Positions 29,031 through 39,328 of a stretch of 64,000 nucleotides of DNA are shown here, piece after piece. The translations under genes were made by a program, and so were the position numbers. The notes under the pieces were generated by a model. The model worked only from the letters and a program-made list of their open reading frames with translations, searched no databases and was not told where the DNA came from. The first letter of the stretch is position 1. Every line of letters begins with the position of its first letter. The stretch comes from Escherichia phage ECP2301: sequence record OR880646.1; one strand, given 5' to 3'.

Positions 29031-29504
29031 TTATTTGAATGATTTGACGTACTGAATAGAGCCTTTGCTATTCACGAAAGCGATTTTACCATTTTTGTTA
29101 TACATGGTAGCAGTACGCTGATAACCATAAGTTTGCTTACCAGATTGATAACCAACTAATGCAAAATTATCTTCACCCATTTTATTCTGCTTCGCGCGGA
29201 TACGTTCATGACCGTGCGCCATAAGAACCTTAGCATCGCCAGTTGAAATTGATCTACGAGTTTTTTCATCTTCAACTGTACTAACAAAGTCGTCAAATGA
29301 ATCAAATTTAGCATGAGATTTATTATACAGTTTTCCATCTACTGCATAATTATATCCCTGTACATCCATCTCAACTTCTGTACCATCATCCAATACAGCA
29401 GTGATTTTTTGACCTTTTTTAAATTTCAAAAGATCAGTAAAAGATTCAGCAATAATTTGAGAATTAATAGCTGCTTCAGTGATAAATTCTTGATATGTTT
29501 TCAT
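29031..29504 (-). CDS. internal-protein candidate with capsid targeting sequence
   Basis: 157 aa beginning MKTYQEFITEA, matching the T4 IPIII CTS MKTYQEFIAE as recalled; late promoter upstream. Confidence 0.6.
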   Translation of the reverse strand: MKTYQEFITEAAINSQIIAESFTDLLKFKKGQKITAVLDDGTEVEMDVQGYNYAVDGKLYNKSHAKFDSFDDFVSTVEDEKTRRSISTGDAKVLMAHGHERIRAKQNKMGEDNFALVGYQSGKQTYGYQRTATMYNKNGKIAFVNSKGSIQYVKSFK

Positions 29505-29513
29505 GTGTTTCCT

Positions 29514-29930
29514 TTAAATGTAAATATTTTTACCGTAGTATTTATACCAGTGTGGCTTCATTAAAATTTTTTCATCGAGTCGTTGTTGACTCAATTTAAT
29601 AGCTGATTTGCATGGATTATAATCATTTTTCCATTCTGCTGGAATATCGCTGATGTCAGGAACTTCAGTATCTTTTATACTAAACCCACGTTTTAAGCAT
29701 TCCGTTATAATGTCTGATTGACGCTTTCGCAAAAATTCTAACTTATCATAAAAGAACGTAACATGACCAGAACCTAAAATAAACTCGGAAGATATTTTAA
29801 AATCTTTAACCCGTTTACCATTTGCAACATGTTTACGAACTATACCAAAAACACGCGGCAGTTCACGGTATTCTGCGATTAAATGTTGATCAGCAAGTTC
29901 AGATACTAAAGTCAAATTAATACGAGTCAT
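29514..29930 (-). CDS. denV: endonuclease V (pyrimidine-dimer DNA glycosylase)
   Basis: 138 aa; [17 protein letters not shown]...[10 protein letters not shown] as T4 endo V. Confidence 0.93.
29539..29546 (-). promoter_or_regulatory. late promoter (TATAAATA) inside 3' end of denV, upstream of internal-protein gene
   Basis: Plus tatttata; minus TATAAATA about 35 nt upstream of start at 29504. Confidence 0.45.
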
Positions 29931-32804: not shown

Positions 32805-33398
32805 TTATTTCAGGGAATTAATGTATTCCTGAACATCGGCAGAGGTAGTTTCAACCCCAGAAATATTACCGTTAAAGGTTTCAACTCGAGCAAGGGTATC
32901 TTCAATATCAACCTTAGTCAGTGCTGCAATTTCAACTACATCATCGGCAGTACTAATTCCAAGGGCATTTGCCGCACGAGTTTCACGGATATATTCCAAT
33001 TTAACTGCAAGCTCTTGACGAGCATCATCTAACTCAACTACTTTCTTAGCGATTTCAATTCGCATTTCAGCATAACCGTCAGCCTTAGTAGTCAACTGCT
33101 CAGCCGTTCGACGATATAGTAAACCGAGTTTAGCATGCATTGTTACATCTTGACCTTCGGAAAGAAGTTTACGAATTTCACGCTCTTTTGATTCAGCCTG
33201 TCGATTCTTTTCGACAATAAGTTCACGAATACGTTTTTCTTCATTAATAGATTTAACAGAAGCAGTTTTTAGATCTTTAATTTTATCAAGTAGTTTTGCT
33301 GCAGCAGCAGTATACTGTTCTTCAACAGATAGATTTTTAGCCATAGCAGAACCAAGTTTAGTGCGAATAAACTCAACAATTTTCTTCAGTGTGTTCAT
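32805..33398 (-). CDS. coiled-coil protein (PspA/IM30-like helical architecture, tentative)
   Basis: 197 aa, almost entirely heptad-rich charged helices. Confidence 0.4.
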
Positions 33399-33455
33399 AG
33401 TATTTCCTTAGGTTGATACAATTAGATAATATCACGTTTTTAATAGATTGTAAAC

Positions 33456-33791
33456 TTATTCTTCGTCTATCTCATCGATAAAGACGTCAATGGCCTCGAT
33501 AACGGCATCATTGATAGCCAATAAAGTAAAATCATCGTCAGTGCCTTTAGAAGATTCTAAAGCATTGATATATGCTTGGTTAGCAAGTTCCCAAGCCTTT
33601 TTAAAATAAGGAGCTTCATCATCAGGGCCAACGAAACGTACACCTTCAAAGATACGGTTAGCATAATCCAATACCCACTGTACAGGCATGTTTTGAGAGC
33701 GTTCGTTAAACTCTTTAAATTCCTTAGATTCAAAAAGCTCTTCGGGATAATAATTTCGATTACAAAAAGCTTTACTAAAGTTACGTTTCAT
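33456..33791 (-). CDS. hypothetical acidic protein
   Basis: 111-aa ORF. Confidence 0.5.
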   Translation of the reverse strand: MKRNFSKAFCNRNYYPEELFESKEFKEFNERSQNMPVQWVLDYANRIFEGVRFVGPDDEAPYFKKAWELANQAYINALESSKGTDDDFTLLAINDAVIEAIDVFIDEIDEE

Positions 33792-33816
33792 AATGTTCTC
33801 CTCAAGTTACAGGCTC

Positions 33817-33846
33817 ATAATATCTCAATCATGAGCCTGTGTAAAC
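33817..33846 (-). promoter_or_regulatory. possible early promoter (GTTTAC -35, TATTAT -10, no TGn)
   Basis: Plus ataata at 33817-33822 and gtaaac at 33841-33846 with the family 18-nt spacing. Confidence 0.35.
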
Positions 33847-34110
33847 TTATTTCATATTATTGAAATATTCTTCTGCGATTTCGTCGTTATCGTGGTAAAC
33901 TTTAGAAGACAGTTTAACATAACCTTCAGCAGCGAACATGTTAATCACAACCTTTACAGTATACCACTGACCATCTTCATTACCCATTACTGCGTAAGTT
34001 TCAAACATCGGATGGTCAGGACCGATAACTTTAATATCATTCACTGTACGACCGAAATCTTCTGAAACACATTTCATAAAGAAGTTGAACAGTTCGCCGT
34101 AATTATCCAT
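33847..34110 (-). CDS. hypothetical protein
   Basis: Start moved to MDNYGELF (SD GGAG); ORF-track extension translates promoter leader. Confidence 0.5.
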   Translation of the reverse strand: MDNYGELFNFFMKCVSEDFGRTVNDIKVIGPDHPMFETYAVMGNEDGQWYTVKVVINMFAAEGYVKLSSKVYHDNDEIAEEYFNNMK

Positions 34111-34149
34111 TTCATTCTCCAAGTTGTTTTCTGTATCAGTAGTTGATAG

Positions 34150-34186
34150 TTGTATAGTACCATGGAAGAACAGGGGTGTAAACCGT
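34150..34186 (-). promoter_or_regulatory. early promoter, TACTAT variant
   Basis: Minus strand GTTTACacccctgttcttccaTGgTACTATacaactatcaact. Confidence 0.55.
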
Positions 34187-34339
34187 TTTGTGAAAAAATT
34201 TTTAGGGAATTCTGGGGCAGGGAGGGGCAATTAAAAGGTAGGATAATATATTATAAAGGGTATAAACTAAATGATGCCTAGAGAGGCCCAGAAAGGCCTA
34301 GATGCCAAAAAGCCCTATCATTTAGATAGGGATTTAAAA

Positions 34340-34903
34340 TTATTTATCTAGTTTAGTTATTATAGCTTCTGCAGCAGCTTTTAGCTTAGATGCGGTGTTA
34401 ATACGATTTTTAATTTCAGTATACGCATCGCCAAGAACATCAAGGCTATCAGAATAAACACTTACACTATTGCGTTCGCTATTTGAAATAGAACCTTTAG
34501 TTTTGCGGTCAAAATCGGTGTACACGTCTTGAAGATCGCGGGCTGCCTTCTTTGCATCATCCAATGCATCAAGAGCTTTATTCAAAGCATTAACGTATTT
34601 TTTAGTGTCGAACATATTCTTAGAAATTTTAACAGGTGCGCGTTCAGGAGTAGCTAACACAGATTTAGGAACCTGAGCGCCAGATGCCAATTTCTTAGAA
34701 ATTTTGAAAAATGCTTTATTGAATTTATTTTCTTGACTCATTGTAAAAGAACTATTATCGATGTTGTACATTTCAATAGCTTTAGCTTTCCACTTAAGAA
34801 AATCGCCGCGGTCTTTTGGGTCCAATTGGAAGAATACTTTAGTAAGATCTGCTTCAGATGGTAATTTTGCTGCTTCGGTTAAAAATTCGGCATAGGTTTT
34901 CAT
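34340..34903 (-). CDS. internal-protein candidate with capsid targeting sequence
   Basis: 187 aa beginning MKTYAEFLTEA. Confidence 0.55.
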   Translation of the reverse strand: MKTYAEFLTEAAKLPSEADLTKVFFQLDPKDRGDFLKWKAKAIEMYNIDNSSFTMSQENKFNKAFFKISKKLASGAQVPKSVLATPERAPVKISKNMFDTKKYVNALNKALDALDDAKKAARDLQDVYTDFDRKTKGSISNSERNSVSVYSDSLDVLGDAYTEIKNRINTASKLKAAAEAIITKLDK

Positions 34904-34990
34904 TTAAAATCCTTGAAATAATTTATCGGTTGGTTATTAATTATTTATTACTTTGTTACTATCCGTAGCAGCATTCTCTATGTGATTCAA

Positions 34991-35020
34991 ACTAAAAAGC
35001 CCCGACCGAAAGGTTGGGGC
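34991..35020 (-). terminator. intrinsic terminator (9-bp GC stem + U5), partner of 35550-35579
   Basis: Plus actaaaaagccccgaccgaaaggttggggctaag. Confidence 0.6.
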
Positions 35021-35028
35021 TAAGAATG

Positions 35029-35502
35029 TTATTTGATTTGTTTAGCAGACCAAATGCGGTCTTTAATAATTTTTTGGATGTCTTCAACATACTCAAGAGA
35101 GTGAACATGTGGATTATCTTTGAAACTATAAGCACGGGCTAACTTTTGGCCTTCGGTTTTGATTACTAAAAGCTCTTTAAGGATAGCTTCATATTTAGCG
35201 ATAATTCCTTTAACGATATTTTTTTCTTGTGCCGCTTTAGGATCTGCTTTAGGAGCAGGTTTACCCGAAGGCTTTGCAAAAGCAGCGCCAGTAGCAACTA
35301 AACTTTTCCAGGCCATACTAACTGCATTTCCCGTAAATCCTTCTGCTTTCATGTCGCGAGCAAATTGGAATCGTGATTCGTCAGAAGCATCTTTATAAGA
35401 ATATTTACCCGCTGCAATGGCTGCTTTTGCGACAGCTTGAATTTCGGTGCTAGATGCTTCATTTAACACCGCTTCATTTAAAAATTGAGCATATGATTTC
35501 AT
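35029..35502 (-). CDS. internal-protein candidate with capsid targeting sequence
   Basis: 157 aa beginning MKSYAQFLNEA; Ala/Lys-rich. Confidence 0.55.
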   Translation of the reverse strand: MKSYAQFLNEAVLNEASSTEIQAVAKAAIAAGKYSYKDASDESRFQFARDMKAEGFTGNAVSMAWKSLVATGAAFAKPSGKPAPKADPKAAQEKNIVKGIIAKYEAILKELLVIKTEGQKLARAYSFKDNPHVHSLEYVEDIQKIIKDRIWSAKQIK

Positions 35503-35542
35503 CTTATTTCCTGTTTTAATTCGTGGATTTAATATACTACTA

Positions 35543-35550
35543 TATTTATA
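35543..35550 (-). promoter_or_regulatory. late promoter (TATAAATA) upstream of internal-protein gene
   Basis: Plus tatttata. Confidence 0.5.
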
Positions 35551-35579
35551 CTAAAAAGCCCCAACCTTTCGGTCGGGGC
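35550..35579 (-). terminator. intrinsic terminator ending the tRNA/stable-RNA transcript
   Basis: Plus ctaaaaagccccaacctttcggtcggggctaag; stem-loop is the reverse complement of the copy at 34999-35020 with identical flanks. Confidence 0.6.
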
Positions 35580-35631
35580 TAAGCCTTGCGGCAACCTTGT
35601 CGGGGTTCCACCTGCTAAGGCAAGTGTTTGT

Positions 35632-35723
35632 ACGAAACGCCGGGATTCGAACCCGGTTATTAAGCAGTTGACGCTACTCAATATTTTTAAAAGGCCATAT
35701 CTCGACCATATCCGAACGTTCCG
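35632..35723 (-). ncRNA. tRNA-like stable RNA element (possible homologue of T4 species 1/2 RNAs rnaC/rnaD)
   Basis: Perfect T-arm CCGGG-TTCGAAT-CCCGG and 7-bp acceptor-like helix, but no canonical D-arm or anticodon arm; ORF-free region 35583-35890. Confidence 0.3.
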
Positions 35724-35891
35724 TCAAAAACGCTACTCGGCTTACGGCAAAGATATTTCCTCGAATCGATAATTCGGTGCGCCGTTTCTGCTGTGATGTA
35801 AGAGGGAATCAACAAATCATAAAGATTTATTAACACAATTCCTTACCCAGGGAACATCAGTCCGACGACTTACCGGTAGCGACCCGGTTTC

Positions 35892-36242
35892 TTAATATTC
35901 TTTTAAAGCATCAATCTGTTCACGACGTTTACGCCATAAATCAATTACTTCATACGCAGATTCAGCATTTCGAATTGGACGGCATTTATATAAAGACTTG
36001 TGATTTTGATATTGCGTAGATAATGGAATTTTATCTAAAAGGTCTTTACGTTCAAAGTATTCGTAACCATCTAAGCCAAATGAACGATTTTTGAGAAATT
36101 GCCAATGACCATATTCGTTTTCGACATAAACATAATCTGCGTGCTGATAAAGCAAATTAATTACACGTTCAGAAATAACAGTGTCATTATGATTAAAATA
36201 GAATGTTAAATCATGAACTACTAAATAAACATTACCTTTCAT
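35892..36242 (-). CDS. hypothetical protein in tRNA region
   Basis: 116-aa ORF between stable-RNA region and tRNA-Arg. Confidence 0.5.
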   Translation of the reverse strand: MKGNVYLVVHDLTFYFNHNDTVISERVINLLYQHADYVYVENEYGHWQFLKNRSFGLDGYEYFERKDLLDKIPLSTQYQNHKSLYKCRPIRNAESAYEVIDLWRKRREQIDALKEY

Positions 36243-36259
36243 ATTTTCCTCACTTAATT

Positions 36260-36335
36260 GGTCGAGGCAGTAGGGATCGAACCTACGACCTAGGACTTAG
36301 AAGGTCCTTGCTCTTCCTTCTGAGCTATGCCCCGT
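36260..36335 (-). tRNA. tRNA-Arg (anticodon UCU)
   Basis: Hand-folded cloverleaf: anticodon loop CUUCUAA, T-loop GGTTCGATCC, CCA encoded. Confidence 0.8.
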
Positions 36336-36339
36336 AATT

Positions 36340-36415
36340 GGGGTGACCGATGGGAGTCGAACCCATGACTACGAGAATCACAATCTCGAGTTCTACCAAC
36401 TGAACTACGGCCACA
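36340..36415 (-). tRNA. tRNA-His (anticodon GUG), no encoded G-1
   Basis: Acceptor GTGGCCG/CGGTCAC, anticodon loop TTGTGAT, discriminator C73, CCA encoded; base at -1 is U. Confidence 0.7.
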
Positions 36416-36529
36416 TTAATACCTACTCCAACAATCAAGATGTCTTCACACGAAATTAAGAGAAGAGTGATCAGTTCAACCCCTATAATCGCGTCAAGTA
36501 GATATTAATGTGACAGTTGTCACAAATTT

Positions 36530-36604
36530 GGCGGACGTGATAGGATTCGAACCTATAACCAATCGCTTAACAGGCGATCGCTCTGCCATTGAGCTACACA
36601 TCCA
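36530..36604 (-). tRNA. tRNA-Asn (anticodon GUU)
   Basis: Acceptor GGATGTG/CACGTCC, anticodon loop CTGTTAA, T-loop GGTTCGAATCC, CCA encoded. Confidence 0.75.
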
Positions 36605-36608
36605 AATT

Positions 36609-36695
36609 GGTGGGGAGTGGTGGAGTCGAACCACCCGAGTCGCAATGACAATGGATTTACAGTCCACACCGCTACCTATACGGGATAACTCCCCA
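36609..36695 (-). tRNA. tRNA-Tyr (anticodon GUA), type II with long variable arm
   Basis: Acceptor GGGGAGT/ACTCCCC, anticodon loop CTGTAAA, T-loop GGTTCGACTCC, CCA encoded, 87 nt. Confidence 0.7.
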
Positions 36696-36704
36696 AATTA
36701 ATTT

Positions 36705-36779
36705 GGTGGCCCTGGGTGGAATTGAACCACCATCTGGCGATTATGAGTCGCTTGCTTGAACCTTCCAGCTACAGGGCCT
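36705..36779 (-). tRNA. tRNA with anticodon CAU (Ile2-type as in T4, or Met)
   Basis: Acceptor GGCCCTG/CAGGGCC, anticodon loop CTCATAA, T-loop GGTTCAATTCC, CCA encoded. Confidence 0.7.
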
Positions 36780-36780
36780 T

Positions 36781-36856
36781 GGTGCTGATTGACGGAATTG
36801 AACCGCCGACCTTCTCATTACAAGTGAGTTGCTCTACCTACTGAGCTAAATCAGCA
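36781..36856 (-). tRNA. tRNA-Thr (anticodon UGU)
   Basis: Acceptor GCTGATT/AATCAGC, anticodon loop CTTGTAA, CCA encoded. Confidence 0.8.
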
Positions 36857-36861
36857 AAACT

Positions 36862-36951
36862 GGCGGAGGCGATAGGATTTGAACCTATGAGTCGCCGGAG
36901 CGACTGCCGGTTTTCAAGACCGGTGCATTAAACCACTCTGCCACGCCTCCA
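36862..36951 (-). tRNA. tRNA-Ser (anticodon UGA), type II
   Basis: Acceptor GGAGGCG/CGCCTCC, anticodon loop CTTGAAA, long variable arm, CCA encoded, 90 nt. Confidence 0.8.
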
Positions 36952-36953
36952 GT

Positions 36954-37027
36954 CTCCATACAAGGATTTGAACCTTGGACCTCCTGATCCCAAATCAGGC
37001 GCTCTACCAAACTGAGCTACACGGAGT
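36954..37027 (-). tRNA. tRNA-Pro (anticodon UGG), CCA not encoded
   Basis: Anticodon loop TTTGGGA; 2 nt upstream of tRNA-Ser, forming a Pro-Ser dimer as in T4. Confidence 0.8.
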
Positions 37028-37036
37028 AAATTAAAT

Positions 37037-37111
<75 letters not shown>

Positions 37112-37116
37112 AATTT

Positions 37117-37203
37117 GGTGCGAGAAGTGGGACTCGAACCCACAAGGAAATCATTCCGCAGCATTTTAAGTGCTGTGCCTTTACCAATTTGGCCATTCTC
37201 GCG
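37117..37203 (-). tRNA. tRNA-Leu (anticodon UAA), type II
   Basis: Acceptor GCGAGAA/TTCTCGC, anticodon loop CTTAAAA, long variable arm, CCA encoded. Confidence 0.8.
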
Positions 37204-37204
37204 C

Positions 37205-37277
37205 TGGGAATAAAGGACTCGAACCTTTGCATCCTGGAATCAAAATCCAGTGCCTTACCAACTTGGCTAATTCCCAA
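37205..37277 (-). tRNA. tRNA-Gln (anticodon UUG), CCA not encoded
   Basis: Acceptor TGGGAAT/ATTCCCA, anticodon loop TTTTGAT; 1 nt upstream of tRNA-Leu (Gln-Leu dimer as in T4). Confidence 0.8.
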
Positions 37278-37373
37278 TTATTAACAAAGGCTCTTAAGCA
37301 AGAACCCTTGATGATAGAGGGTATTAATCAGTGCGATATGAGTTAATAATAACAAATAATTCTTAAAGCATAT

Positions 37374-37667
37374 TTACCATTTATGATAATACATATTTAC
37401 GATGCATTCAAGACCCAAAGGATTCTTGAAAATATCATATTCAAGAGGACCTTTTTCTGTTTCAATAAAGAAATCAAAATTTACTGTATTAAATTTACGG
37501 TCTTCCTTTACTAATTTAACTTGAGAAGATGAACGGTCAATGTAAACCTTTTCAACTTCAAAACATGTTAAAATGCCATAATCATCAATCAAGGCTTTAG
37601 CTGCTTCTTGATCATATTTATATCCATTTTCAATGGATGATACTTTCGCATAAAGAATCATTATCAA
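37374..37667 (-). CDS. hypothetical protein
   Basis: 97-aa ORF. Confidence 0.5.
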   Translation of the reverse strand: MIMILYAKVSSIENGYKYDQEAAKALIDDYGILTCFEVEKVYIDRSSSQVKLVKEDRKFNTVNFDFFIETEKGPLEYDIFKNPLGLECIVNMYYHKW

Positions 37668-38044
37668 CCTTCATCAACAATAGTATGCGTATTGGCATTT
37701 ACAATTTGCCACCAATCAAAGCGATTAGAACCATAATCTGGTTTGTTTTCATTTTCTTTGATAATGTCACGGAGTTCATCTTCAGTGGCGGCTTTCGCGA
37801 TTAAATCAGCATATCCACCACGAGGATAATAATTATCACCTGCAAAAAGTAAAAAGTTTGGTTTAATGTTATTGAACTCTTCAAGAGTAATAACTTTTCC
37901 TGACGGTTGAACAATCTCTACATATTTATATCCCAATTTTTGAGCAGCATCTACTGCTTCAAGCAAAGTATCATGAGCCCATCCAATTTGACAACCTGGC
38001 TTTTCAGATGGATTAGCCTGATAATCCGCATACACTTTGTACAT
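37664..38044 (-). CDS. hypothetical protein
   Basis: ORF track 139 aa; start moved to MYKVYADYQ. Confidence 0.5.
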   Translation of the reverse strand: MYKVYADYQANPSEKPGCQIGWAHDTLLEAVDAAQKLGYKYVEIVQPSGKVITLEEFNNIKPNFLLFAGDNYYPRGGYADLIAKAATEDELRDIIKENENKPDYGSNRFDWWQIVNANTHTIVDEG

Positions 38045-38045
38045 T

Positions 38046-38231
38046 CTATTCACCTTTAGAAATTTTATCCATAACGATAGCAATTAAACCAATTAAAAAT
38101 GCTACTACAAGTGAAAAAACATTTTCTGCTGTAGTCAATAATCCACATATAAATCCAACAAACATTGAAAAACTAAAAGCAGAAGCAGAAATTGCAATAG
38201 CAACATTTCGAATTAATTCACAACGTTTCAT
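38046..38231 (-). CDS. small membrane protein
   Basis: 61 aa, two hydrophobic segments; preceded by SD and early promoter. Confidence 0.5.
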   Translation of the reverse strand: MKRCELIRNVAIAISASAFSFSMFVGFICGLLTTAENVFSLVVAFLIGLIAIVMDKISKGE

Positions 38232-38255: not shown

Positions 38256-38311
38256 GGTAATAGTATCACAACTAAAACCCTATGTAAACAACTTTGTGAA
38301 ATTATTTTAAA
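38256..38311 (-). promoter_or_regulatory. early promoter with duplicated 31-nt upstream block
   Basis: Minus strand GTTTACatagggttttagttgTGaTACTAT; upstream block atgtaaacaactttgtgaaattattttaaatc repeated at 38609-38639. Confidence 0.5.
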
Positions 38312-38559
38312 TCTTCTAATCGTTTCTTCATCTTAGAACCGTTCTTAGCGATTTCGCCTGCATCTGAGCATAATGCTAAAAGTGCTTTAACTTTAGTTTG
38401 GTCTCCTTTAAAAGATGAAGGATCGACTGCAGCAGCAAGTTCTTTAATACGAGAGAAAAGACGCTCAGCTTCAGCTAAAGCCATTCCAAGCTTTACTTCC
38501 ATACCGTGGGAAGATTCAGTGATAGTAGTTTTTGTAGCAAACTCTTTGAAAGTTTTCAT
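38302..38559 (-). CDS. small internal-protein-like ORF (ipI position; weak CTS-like N-terminus)
   Basis: 85 aa beginning MKTFKEFATK; sits between tRNA cluster and 57B where T4 has ipI. Confidence 0.4.
   Translation of the reverse strand: MKTFKEFATKTTITESSHGMEVKLGMALAEAERLFSRIKELAAAVDPSSFKGDQTKVKALLALCSDAGEIAKNGSKMKKRLEDLK

Positions 38560-38585: not shown

Positions 38586-39328
<743 letters not shown>

Follow-up and report, generated by a model that had tools for sequence, protein, structure and literature searches.

Candidate internal-protein cassettes and a recurrently flipped terminator hairpin between rnaC and e.8 of T4-like phages

The closest described counterparts of two open reading frames (ORFs) of Escherichia phage ECP2301 considered here are the internal proteins of bacteriophage T4 (IPI, IPII and IPIII), together with the variants Ip4-Ip6 found in other T-even phages, as reportedly described by Repoila and colleagues in 1994 and by Mullaney and Black in 1996. 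The two ORFs, ORF157 and ORF187, lie between rnaC and e.8 in sequence record OR880646.1, of which a stretch of 64,000 nucleotides, called the window below, was analysed. The T4 internal proteins are small and basic, have bodies that are unrelated to each other, and vary in presence between close relatives. Together with Ip4-Ip6 they have a late promoter and a targeting leader that agrees in its key residues and contains an L-x-E|A cleavage motif, and the two ORFs resemble them in all of these features. IPI, acting against GmrS/GmrD, and IPII, acting against fused GmrSD, are proven anti-restriction proteins and the only T-even internal proteins with identified targets; IPIII is needed on one wild host. 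IPII and IPIII start with MKTYQEFIAEA, which is cut as MKTYQEFIAE|A, and mutational work on IPIII has assigned head targeting to residues 4 and 7, and processing to residues 8 and 10 (PMC9026906). The earlier literature recognised two internal-protein loci and no internal-protein genes elsewhere (PMC2839356).

A second described system is that of the PeSL, mobile regulatory cassettes of T4-type phages whose description comes from pseudo-T-even and schizo-T-even phages (Arbiol et al. 2010; Comeau et al. 2014; PMC2839356). As at the locus described here, ORF-sized insertions, deletions and replacements are bounded by a conserved terminator stem-loop (GGGG/CCCC) beside a promoter, and the breakpoints of all three kinds of event coincide with the hairpin motif. 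However, the PeSL promoter is early and sigma-70-like, whereas the promoter here is the T4 late TATAAATA; and PeSL are dispersed across hyperplastic regions, whereas the copies here are found at this locus only.

The third set of precedents concerns the hairpin itself. Quasi-palindrome template-switch mutations are the subject of Ripley's model, which is said to stem from T4 rII, and small hairpin inversions are known from chloroplast spacers. As in these precedents, the interior of the hairpin at the present locus is swapped for its exact reverse complement between unaltered flanks, the change is recurrent, and in one variant a shifted switch extends the stem. The difference is that the sequence concerned is a predicted functional intrinsic terminator of a phage, and that only one of two identical copies tolerates flips.

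The ECP2301 window belongs to a Tequatrovirus, and the region is 96-98% identical to many T4-like genomes, for example ESh26, ime09 and D5505. With a probability of roughly 70%, the rnaC-e.8 interval is a variable internal-protein cassette locus that holds two cassettes in this phage, with exchange at the terminator and, as a separate event, a flip of one terminator hairpin by template switching. Neither ORF is in the classical internal-protein loci (denV-e and trna.4-57B). The classical location is a historical description and not a functional requirement. In T4, the e.8-rnaC interval is 242 bp long and gene-free, its sole content being the rnaC terminator; thus, the interval is a third internal-protein locus. 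The two ORFs fit best as new members, so far unannotated, of the T-even internal-protein class, occupying a third cassette locus and accompanied by a neat but minor flip polymorphism. Both the cassettes and the flip are new examples of known phenomena, and no new kind of system.

ORF157 (157 amino acids (aa); 35029..35502, minus strand) starts with MKSYAQFLNEA, and ORF187 (187 aa; 34340..34903, minus strand) starts with MKTYAEFLTEA, giving the leaders MKSYAQFLNE|A and MKTYAEFLTE|A, respectively. An initial annotation, made from the letters of the sequence, had noted a resemblance to the T4 capsid targeting sequence, and this resemblance is borne out at the level of single residues. Y4, F7, L8, E10 and the Ala that follows are retained in both ORFs, according to the pattern M-K-[TS]-Y-x-[EQ]-F-L-x-E|A. 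The targeting determinants at positions 4 and 7 (Y4 and F7) are therefore present in both, and residues 8-10 provide a predicted site for the gp21 prohead protease ([L/I]-x-E plus a small residue), namely LNE|A in ORF157 and LTE|A in ORF187. In ORF157, residues 8-16 (window 35455-35502) form a tandem LNEA-V-LNEA, so that E10 and E15 each precede a candidate protease site; this 5-residue LNEA repeat is absent from the Mosigvirus homologues.

Had the N-terminal motif not been conserved in comparison with established internal proteins, membership of the class would be hard to maintain. The motif is retained, also across genera: homologues of ORF157 in Mosigvirus, Jiaodavirus and one Yersinia phage keep the leader although their bodies are down to 38-43% identity, with F7 invariant and either Y or F at position 4. 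A loose form of the leader pattern matches four ORFs in the window, which are ORF157, ORF187, an Ip4-like gene and an Ip5-like gene. These observations bear on the alternative that the two ORFs encode unpackaged late accessory proteins of an ordinary kind, and that their N-termini are kept as a translation-initiation region (the first ~30 nt) or as homology for recombination. This alternative is distinctly improbable, because the leader is conserved as amino acids, precisely at the four targeting and processing positions, because it persists across genera despite diverged codons and protein bodies, and because the motif is limited within the window to the two ORFs and two annotated internal proteins. 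What speaks for it is that no proven internal protein is homologous to the bodies, that a look for proteomic evidence on ORF187 in the literature found none, and that the virion proteome in which an ORF157 homologue was detected (see below) is unspecific.

Outside the leader, no homology was found between the bodies of ORF157 or ORF187 and IPI, IPII or IPIII, or between the two ORFs, and an hhalign comparison of the two families detected the leader alone. Both ORFs match a PHROG family that differs from those of IPI, IPII, IPIII, Ip4 and Ip5. Since the named internal proteins are mutually unrelated, the lack of homology in the mature part does not exclude the two ORFs from the class. Both proteins are basic (pI 9.5 for ORF157 and 9.4 for ORF187), as are IPII and IPIII. 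They differ from the named internal proteins in their lack of body homology to them, in their location at the third locus (rnaC to e.8), and in being labelled hypothetical in more than 500 records. Searches of Pfam and NCBIfam with both ORFs gave nothing meaningful, the sole match being a sub-threshold one of ORF187 to cytochrome b562.

The family that both ORFs match is phrog_2280, of unknown function, which is also matched by a 208-aa protein (MYTFNEFLAE...) at the same position in the Mosigvirus HX01. In an exhaustive HMMER search, ORF187 was similar over its full length to a protein designated P0027 (32% identity), which in turn is 37% identical to the HX01 208-aa protein. ORF187 is thus distantly homologous to the protein found at this locus in Mosigvirus. 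For ORF157, there is a weak similarity between its C-terminal half and that of the HX01 protein (E = 1e-6). Given these links, the ORF157 and ORF187 cassettes are best regarded as a tandem stack of relatives that have diverged deeply. There is no database name for either ORF: ORF157 occurs in 511 phage records and ORF187 in 164, and the annotation is hypothetical in every one. Names such as ip7 or ip8 were not found for them in the records inspected, including that of phage PST, where the Krisch laboratory annotation has the empty, T4-like state at the locus; the 'more than 30' catalogued variants may include them.

The product of ORF157 has a homologue in virion preparations. Gp140 (g140) of phage fD1 (phiD1) is 96.8% identical to ORF157, and is listed as particle-associated from LC-MS/MS of purified virions (PMC8309999 Table S3). 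The proposal that both ORFs are internal-protein candidates of the T4 type is thus upheld by the leader residues, the late promoter, the basic character, the unrelated bodies, the variable presence and this homologue. By analogy with IPI, IPII and IPIII, the two proteins would most likely function as injected anti-defence factors. In the proposed sequence of events, the products would be made late in infection, the 10-residue leader would bring them into the prohead core, and the prohead protease would cut them after L-x-E. They would then enter the host with the DNA and act there, most likely against defence systems.

Several points weigh against this reading, to which the softness of the flip tree and the silence of the junctions on direction, both taken up below, should be added. 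Firstly, the fD1 proteome is permissive, comprising 137 phage proteins (thymidine kinase and lysozyme included) and 672 host proteins, and so the detection of Gp140 is moderate support only for ORF157 as a virion protein. Secondly, packaging, cleavage and injection of ORF187 are only predicted; virion proteomics for ORF187-bearing phages was sought in the literature and none was found, the papers on fPS-65 and Sfk20 having no mass spectrometry. Thirdly, the structure models give no functional lead. ORF157 is predicted to be all-helical, with two helical domains and a Pro/Lys-rich linker between them (pLDDT 74), and its structure matches are generic helical hairpins only; ORF187 is likewise predicted to be all-helical (pLDDT 61). 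Finally, the exact octamer TATAAATA is absent before ORF187, and template switching as the cause of the flip is drawn from sequence signatures alone.

The elements of each cassette are a late promoter, a ribosome-binding site, an ORF that bears the leader, and an intrinsic terminator with GGGCTTTTT at its end. For ORF157, the late promoter that the initial annotation pointed to is an exact T4-type TATAAATA (35543..35550, minus strand), 2 nt after the T-run of the preceding terminator and 41 nt before the ATG. Every ORF157-bearing Tequatrovirus locus in the comparison retains it. Across the window the octamer shows no enrichment (14 found against 10 +/- 3 expected), so its weight rests on position. 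For ORF187, a candidate weak late promoter, AATAAATA (34942..34949, minus strand), matches the consensus at 7/8 positions and is 39 nt before the ATG. It is a possible late promoter, judged by a spacing similar to that of the ORF157 promoter. The ORF187 terminator (34308..34331, minus strand), identified by a terminator scan and folding, is CCCTATC-TAAAT-GATAGGG followed by CTTTTT, and ends in GGGCTTTTT.

ORF157 is bracketed by two further terminators. The proximal one, which is the rnaC terminator (35552..35580, minus strand), was found by the terminator scan and has AGCCCCGACC-GAAA-GGTTGGGGCT and then TTTTT on the coding strand. With a GNRA loop and a G.U pair, it is strong on that strand (-24.9 kcal/mol, z = -4.7). 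It is identical in sequence and orientation to the T4 rnaC terminator, GCCCCGACC-GAAA-GGTTGGGGC-TTTTT on the coding strand. The distal one (34994..35021, minus strand) has a flipped core, GCCCCAACC-TTTC-GGTCGGGGC and then TTTTT on the coding strand, with an A.C mismatch, a UUUC loop and -15.8 kcal/mol. Both have the G+C-rich stem-loop and the U-tract on the transcribed strand, and are predicted rho-independent terminators by scan and folding. On the plus strand, the hairpins read GCCCCGACCGAAAGGTTGGGGC at 34999-35020 and GCCCCAACCTTTCGGTCGGGGC at 35558-35579. The description of these as terminators with shared flanks and reverse-complemented stem-loops around ORF157 is exact: the 22-nt hairpins are exact reverse complements, the flanks (ctaaaaa...taag) are identical, and the copies differ at 6 positions, each as expected from reverse complementation. 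No other match to the hairpin occurs in the window, and none is expected in shuffles. An identical 22-nt hairpin with a T-run occurs with different flanks in the 251-kb viral contig IMGVR_UViG_3300045125_000071 (L007 8608-8629), and may reflect either convergence or a common origin.

Comparison of T4, PST, RB33/JK38/GiZh, D5505/ZN18/ime09, O157tp3/HX01 and KpV477 provides a clean natural series of this locus: empty, one cassette, two cassettes, and replaced. The junctions between these states are exactly at ...GGGGCTTTTT, and the breakpoints are exactly at the terminator hairpin and T-run. In the empty state of T4, the coding strand reads rnaC...TTAG-hairpin-TTTTT|GGTATCTA...e.8. Phages with ORF157 only (RB33, JK38, GiZh and Lutter) have hairpin-TTTTT|AGTATAAATA...ORF157...CATTC-TTAG-hairpin-TTTTT|GGTATCTA, so that ORF157 is bracketed by a 30-nt direct repeat, TTAG-hairpin-TTTTT. 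Phages with both ORFs (D5505, ZN18 and ime09) add AGTTTGAATC...ORF187...CCCTATCTAAATGATAGGGCTTTTT|GGCATCTA at the same point, and the ORF187 junction has a 9-nt microhomology, GGGCTTTTT. Recombination in T4 is known to take place at microhomologies of 2-10 bp (PMC9391042).

A clean cassette replacement distinguishes two Mosigvirus phages, O157tp3 with the ORF157 type and HX01 with the 208-aa type: their 93-96% homology stops at the rnaC terminator and returns after the cassette terminator. Another Mosigvirus, ChristianSchoenbein, has both the ORF157 type and ORF187. In the Jiaodavirus KpV477, an ORF157 homologue is located at the syntenic position, directly downstream of the transfer RNA (tRNA) cluster. 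This suggests that the empty state of T4 and PST may be the result of a deletion between the direct repeats. The junctions give no signal on direction, so that judged from these sequences cassette insertion and deletion would look the same. The comparison of genomes shows that recombination at the terminator has added, removed, stacked and replaced cassettes. The cassette exchange that had been proposed for this locus is therefore supported, with breakpoints at the hairpin and T-run; the part of the proposal that made the inverted core the exchange device found no support. The hairpins are direct repeats in most related genomes, the inversion is rare and derived, and the flip removes most of the direct homology, and thus should hinder exchange or deletion and not promote it.

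The orientation of both hairpins is direct in D5505, ZN18, ime09, JK38 and most other genomes. A flipped copy distal to ORF157 was found in ~14/470 records (~3%), a count that comes from a search designed to rank flipped copies first. The flipped records include VIPECOOM01-03, LF73P1, ES12, ES26, T4_ev240, BCH953P4, KAW1E185, a48 and ChristianSchoenbein. In T4_ev240 (L019, 1536-2010), the annotated coding sequence of the ORF157 homologue is only 294 nt and no ORF of the expected 157 aa was recovered by extraction, which suggests a frameshift or pseudogene. No flipped rnaC-proximal copy was found in matching searches of ORF157-bearing and T4-type genomes, where each full-length match had the six expected mismatches. 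The flipped alleles correspond, as exact reverse complements, to three different forward alleles (GAAA loop plus GA stem against TTTC plus TC; AAAA loop against TTTT; AG stem against CT).

On an ORF157 tree, a forward phage is among the closest relatives of every flipped phage, and three deep allele clades all contain both orientations. By Fitch parsimony, the 9 flipped taxa require 9 changes on this neighbour-joining tree, for which flipped loci were sampled on purpose, and which is shallow within the main clade with soft shallow nodes. About 3 independent flips (one per deep allele clade) are thus secure, and higher counts are likely but softer. The flip is read from these sequences as a rare derived state of one direct copy, a recurrent hairpin inversion and not a design feature of the cassette. 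An artefact of sequencing or assembly was considered for the inverted core, as palindromes can confuse assemblers, and was rejected as next to impossible: the arms of 9-10 nt are below any assembler k-mer, and the flips recur in independent isolates and laboratories, with lineage-specific secondary changes.

The most likely cause of the flip is template switching at the quasi-palindrome, during replication, in one of two originally direct terminator copies. The flip has arisen more than once in the group, and persists only at the copy downstream of ORF157. In LF73P1 (L011 2523-2555), the flip is shifted by 3 nt, the opposite flank is copied (TTTTT to TAATT) and the U-tract is lost. This shifted flip fits a template switch and not a crossover from arm to arm, which would not copy the flank of the opposite side. 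Gene conversion or a double crossover, in which the hairpin pairs antiparallel with a sister copy or with the copy 557 bp away, is therefore an unlikely source. T4 recombination is very active and short homologies suffice for it, and flips are seen in two-copy genomes only, both of which would suit such an exchange; yet the hairpin arms give only ~9-10 bp of homology, and a mechanism that uses two copies should hit either of them, whereas the proximal copy is never flipped. The exact 22-mer is present twice in a complete 167,948-bp genome, both copies being at this locus, so that no distant donor copy is evident. A hairpin element dispersed genome-wide was rejected on the same counts (two copies in the window and two in the complete genome).

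The simplest reading of the restriction of flips to the distal copy is selection on the terminator of rnaC and the tRNA operon. It is also possible to see the flip as adaptive, in that it destroys the 30-nt direct repeat and locks ORF157 in place, or weakens the terminator and allows read-through into ORF187 or e.8. Such a deletion 'lock' or read-through tuner is speculative and, on balance, doubtful. After a flip, only 8-10 nt of direct homology are left per end, the predicted hairpin energy changes from -24.9 to -15.8 kcal/mol, the U-tract of LF73P1 is also lost, and flips are limited to the distal copy, as adaptation would have it. Against this, flipped records are only ~3% of the total and flips occur both with and without ORF187 downstream. 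Furthermore, VIPECOOM01 (L010 2530-2551) and KAW1E185 (L020 ~1506-1527) are flipped with perfect stems. These may be due either to compensation or to further templated correction, and the restoration of the stem after the flip argues that terminator strength is still selected.

A bolder combination of these ideas is that phrog_2280 (ORF157, ORF187 and the Mosigvirus 208-aa protein) is an unrecognised, genus-spanning family of injected proteins at a third internal-protein locus, directed against a host defence that has so far had no link to internal proteins, and that the distal terminator is a recurrently flipping quasi-palindrome, its orientation being selected as a lock or tuner. Selection on orientation would explain why flips are found in one of two identical copies only, but the combination can be put forward only tentatively and with low confidence. 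The family occurs in ~500 T-even phages that have been sequenced, therapeutic and environmental ones, and is labelled hypothetical in all of them. If its members are true injected effectors, they are ready candidates as determinants of host range and as leads to new defence systems. A further lesson of the locus is that short terminator sequences act as joints for recombination in T-even genomes. The polymorphism of the hairpin offers a natural example of template-switch mutagenesis on a predicted functional terminator, with a built-in control in the identical copy that is never flipped.

The surroundings of the locus are those of a T4-like phage, and every gene in this part of the window is on the minus strand. 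The order of transcription is the tRNA cluster, ORF116, rnaD, rnaC, ORF157, ORF187, e.8, e.7 and e.6. The gene rnaC (species 1 stable RNA; 35631..35769, minus strand) is 98.6% identical to the annotated T4 rnaC and is the final gene of the tRNA/rnaD/rnaC cluster, the cassette locus beginning at its terminator. The conserved gene e.8 (33847..34110, minus strand; 97% identity to T4 e.8) forms the downstream boundary. Upstream of rnaC are rnaD (35776-35892, minus strand) and the cluster of 11 tRNAs (36259-37276, minus strand), which has His, Asn, Tyr and Met among its genes; segB is absent. A 116-aa ORF, ORF116 (35892-36242, minus strand; phrog_3355, of unknown function), occupies the space from rnaD to tRNA-Arg, which is gene-free in T4. 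An Rfam scan of 33000-38000 found tRNAs only.

The two annotated internal proteins of the window lie elsewhere. The Ip4-like gene (157 aa; 29031-29504, minus strand) starts with MKTYQEFITEA, corresponds to the annotated Ip4/IpIV of ime09 and PST, and is located between vs.8 and denV. It has an exact late promoter, TATAAATA, at 29539-29546, 35 nt upstream. The Ip5-like gene (38302-38559, minus strand), an annotated internal protein, is at the classical ipI locus. On either side of it stands the 20-nt sequence TTTCACAAAGTTGTTTACAT, perfectly repeated in direct orientation (38282-38301 and 38612-38631, minus strand) and resembling a T4 early promoter. The cassette joints at the ipI locus are therefore early-promoter repeats, whereas those at the rnaC locus are terminator hairpins.

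Protein P0014, from a 2898-nt Logan contig, was compared with window positions 37664-38083 and 35029-35100. In it, the N-terminal part of a trna.3-like protein is fused to the last 28 residues of ORF157, through either a chimeric assembly or the natural, in-frame loss of the entire tRNA/rnaD/rnaC block. P0024 and P0025 are similar mosaics that involve ORF187.

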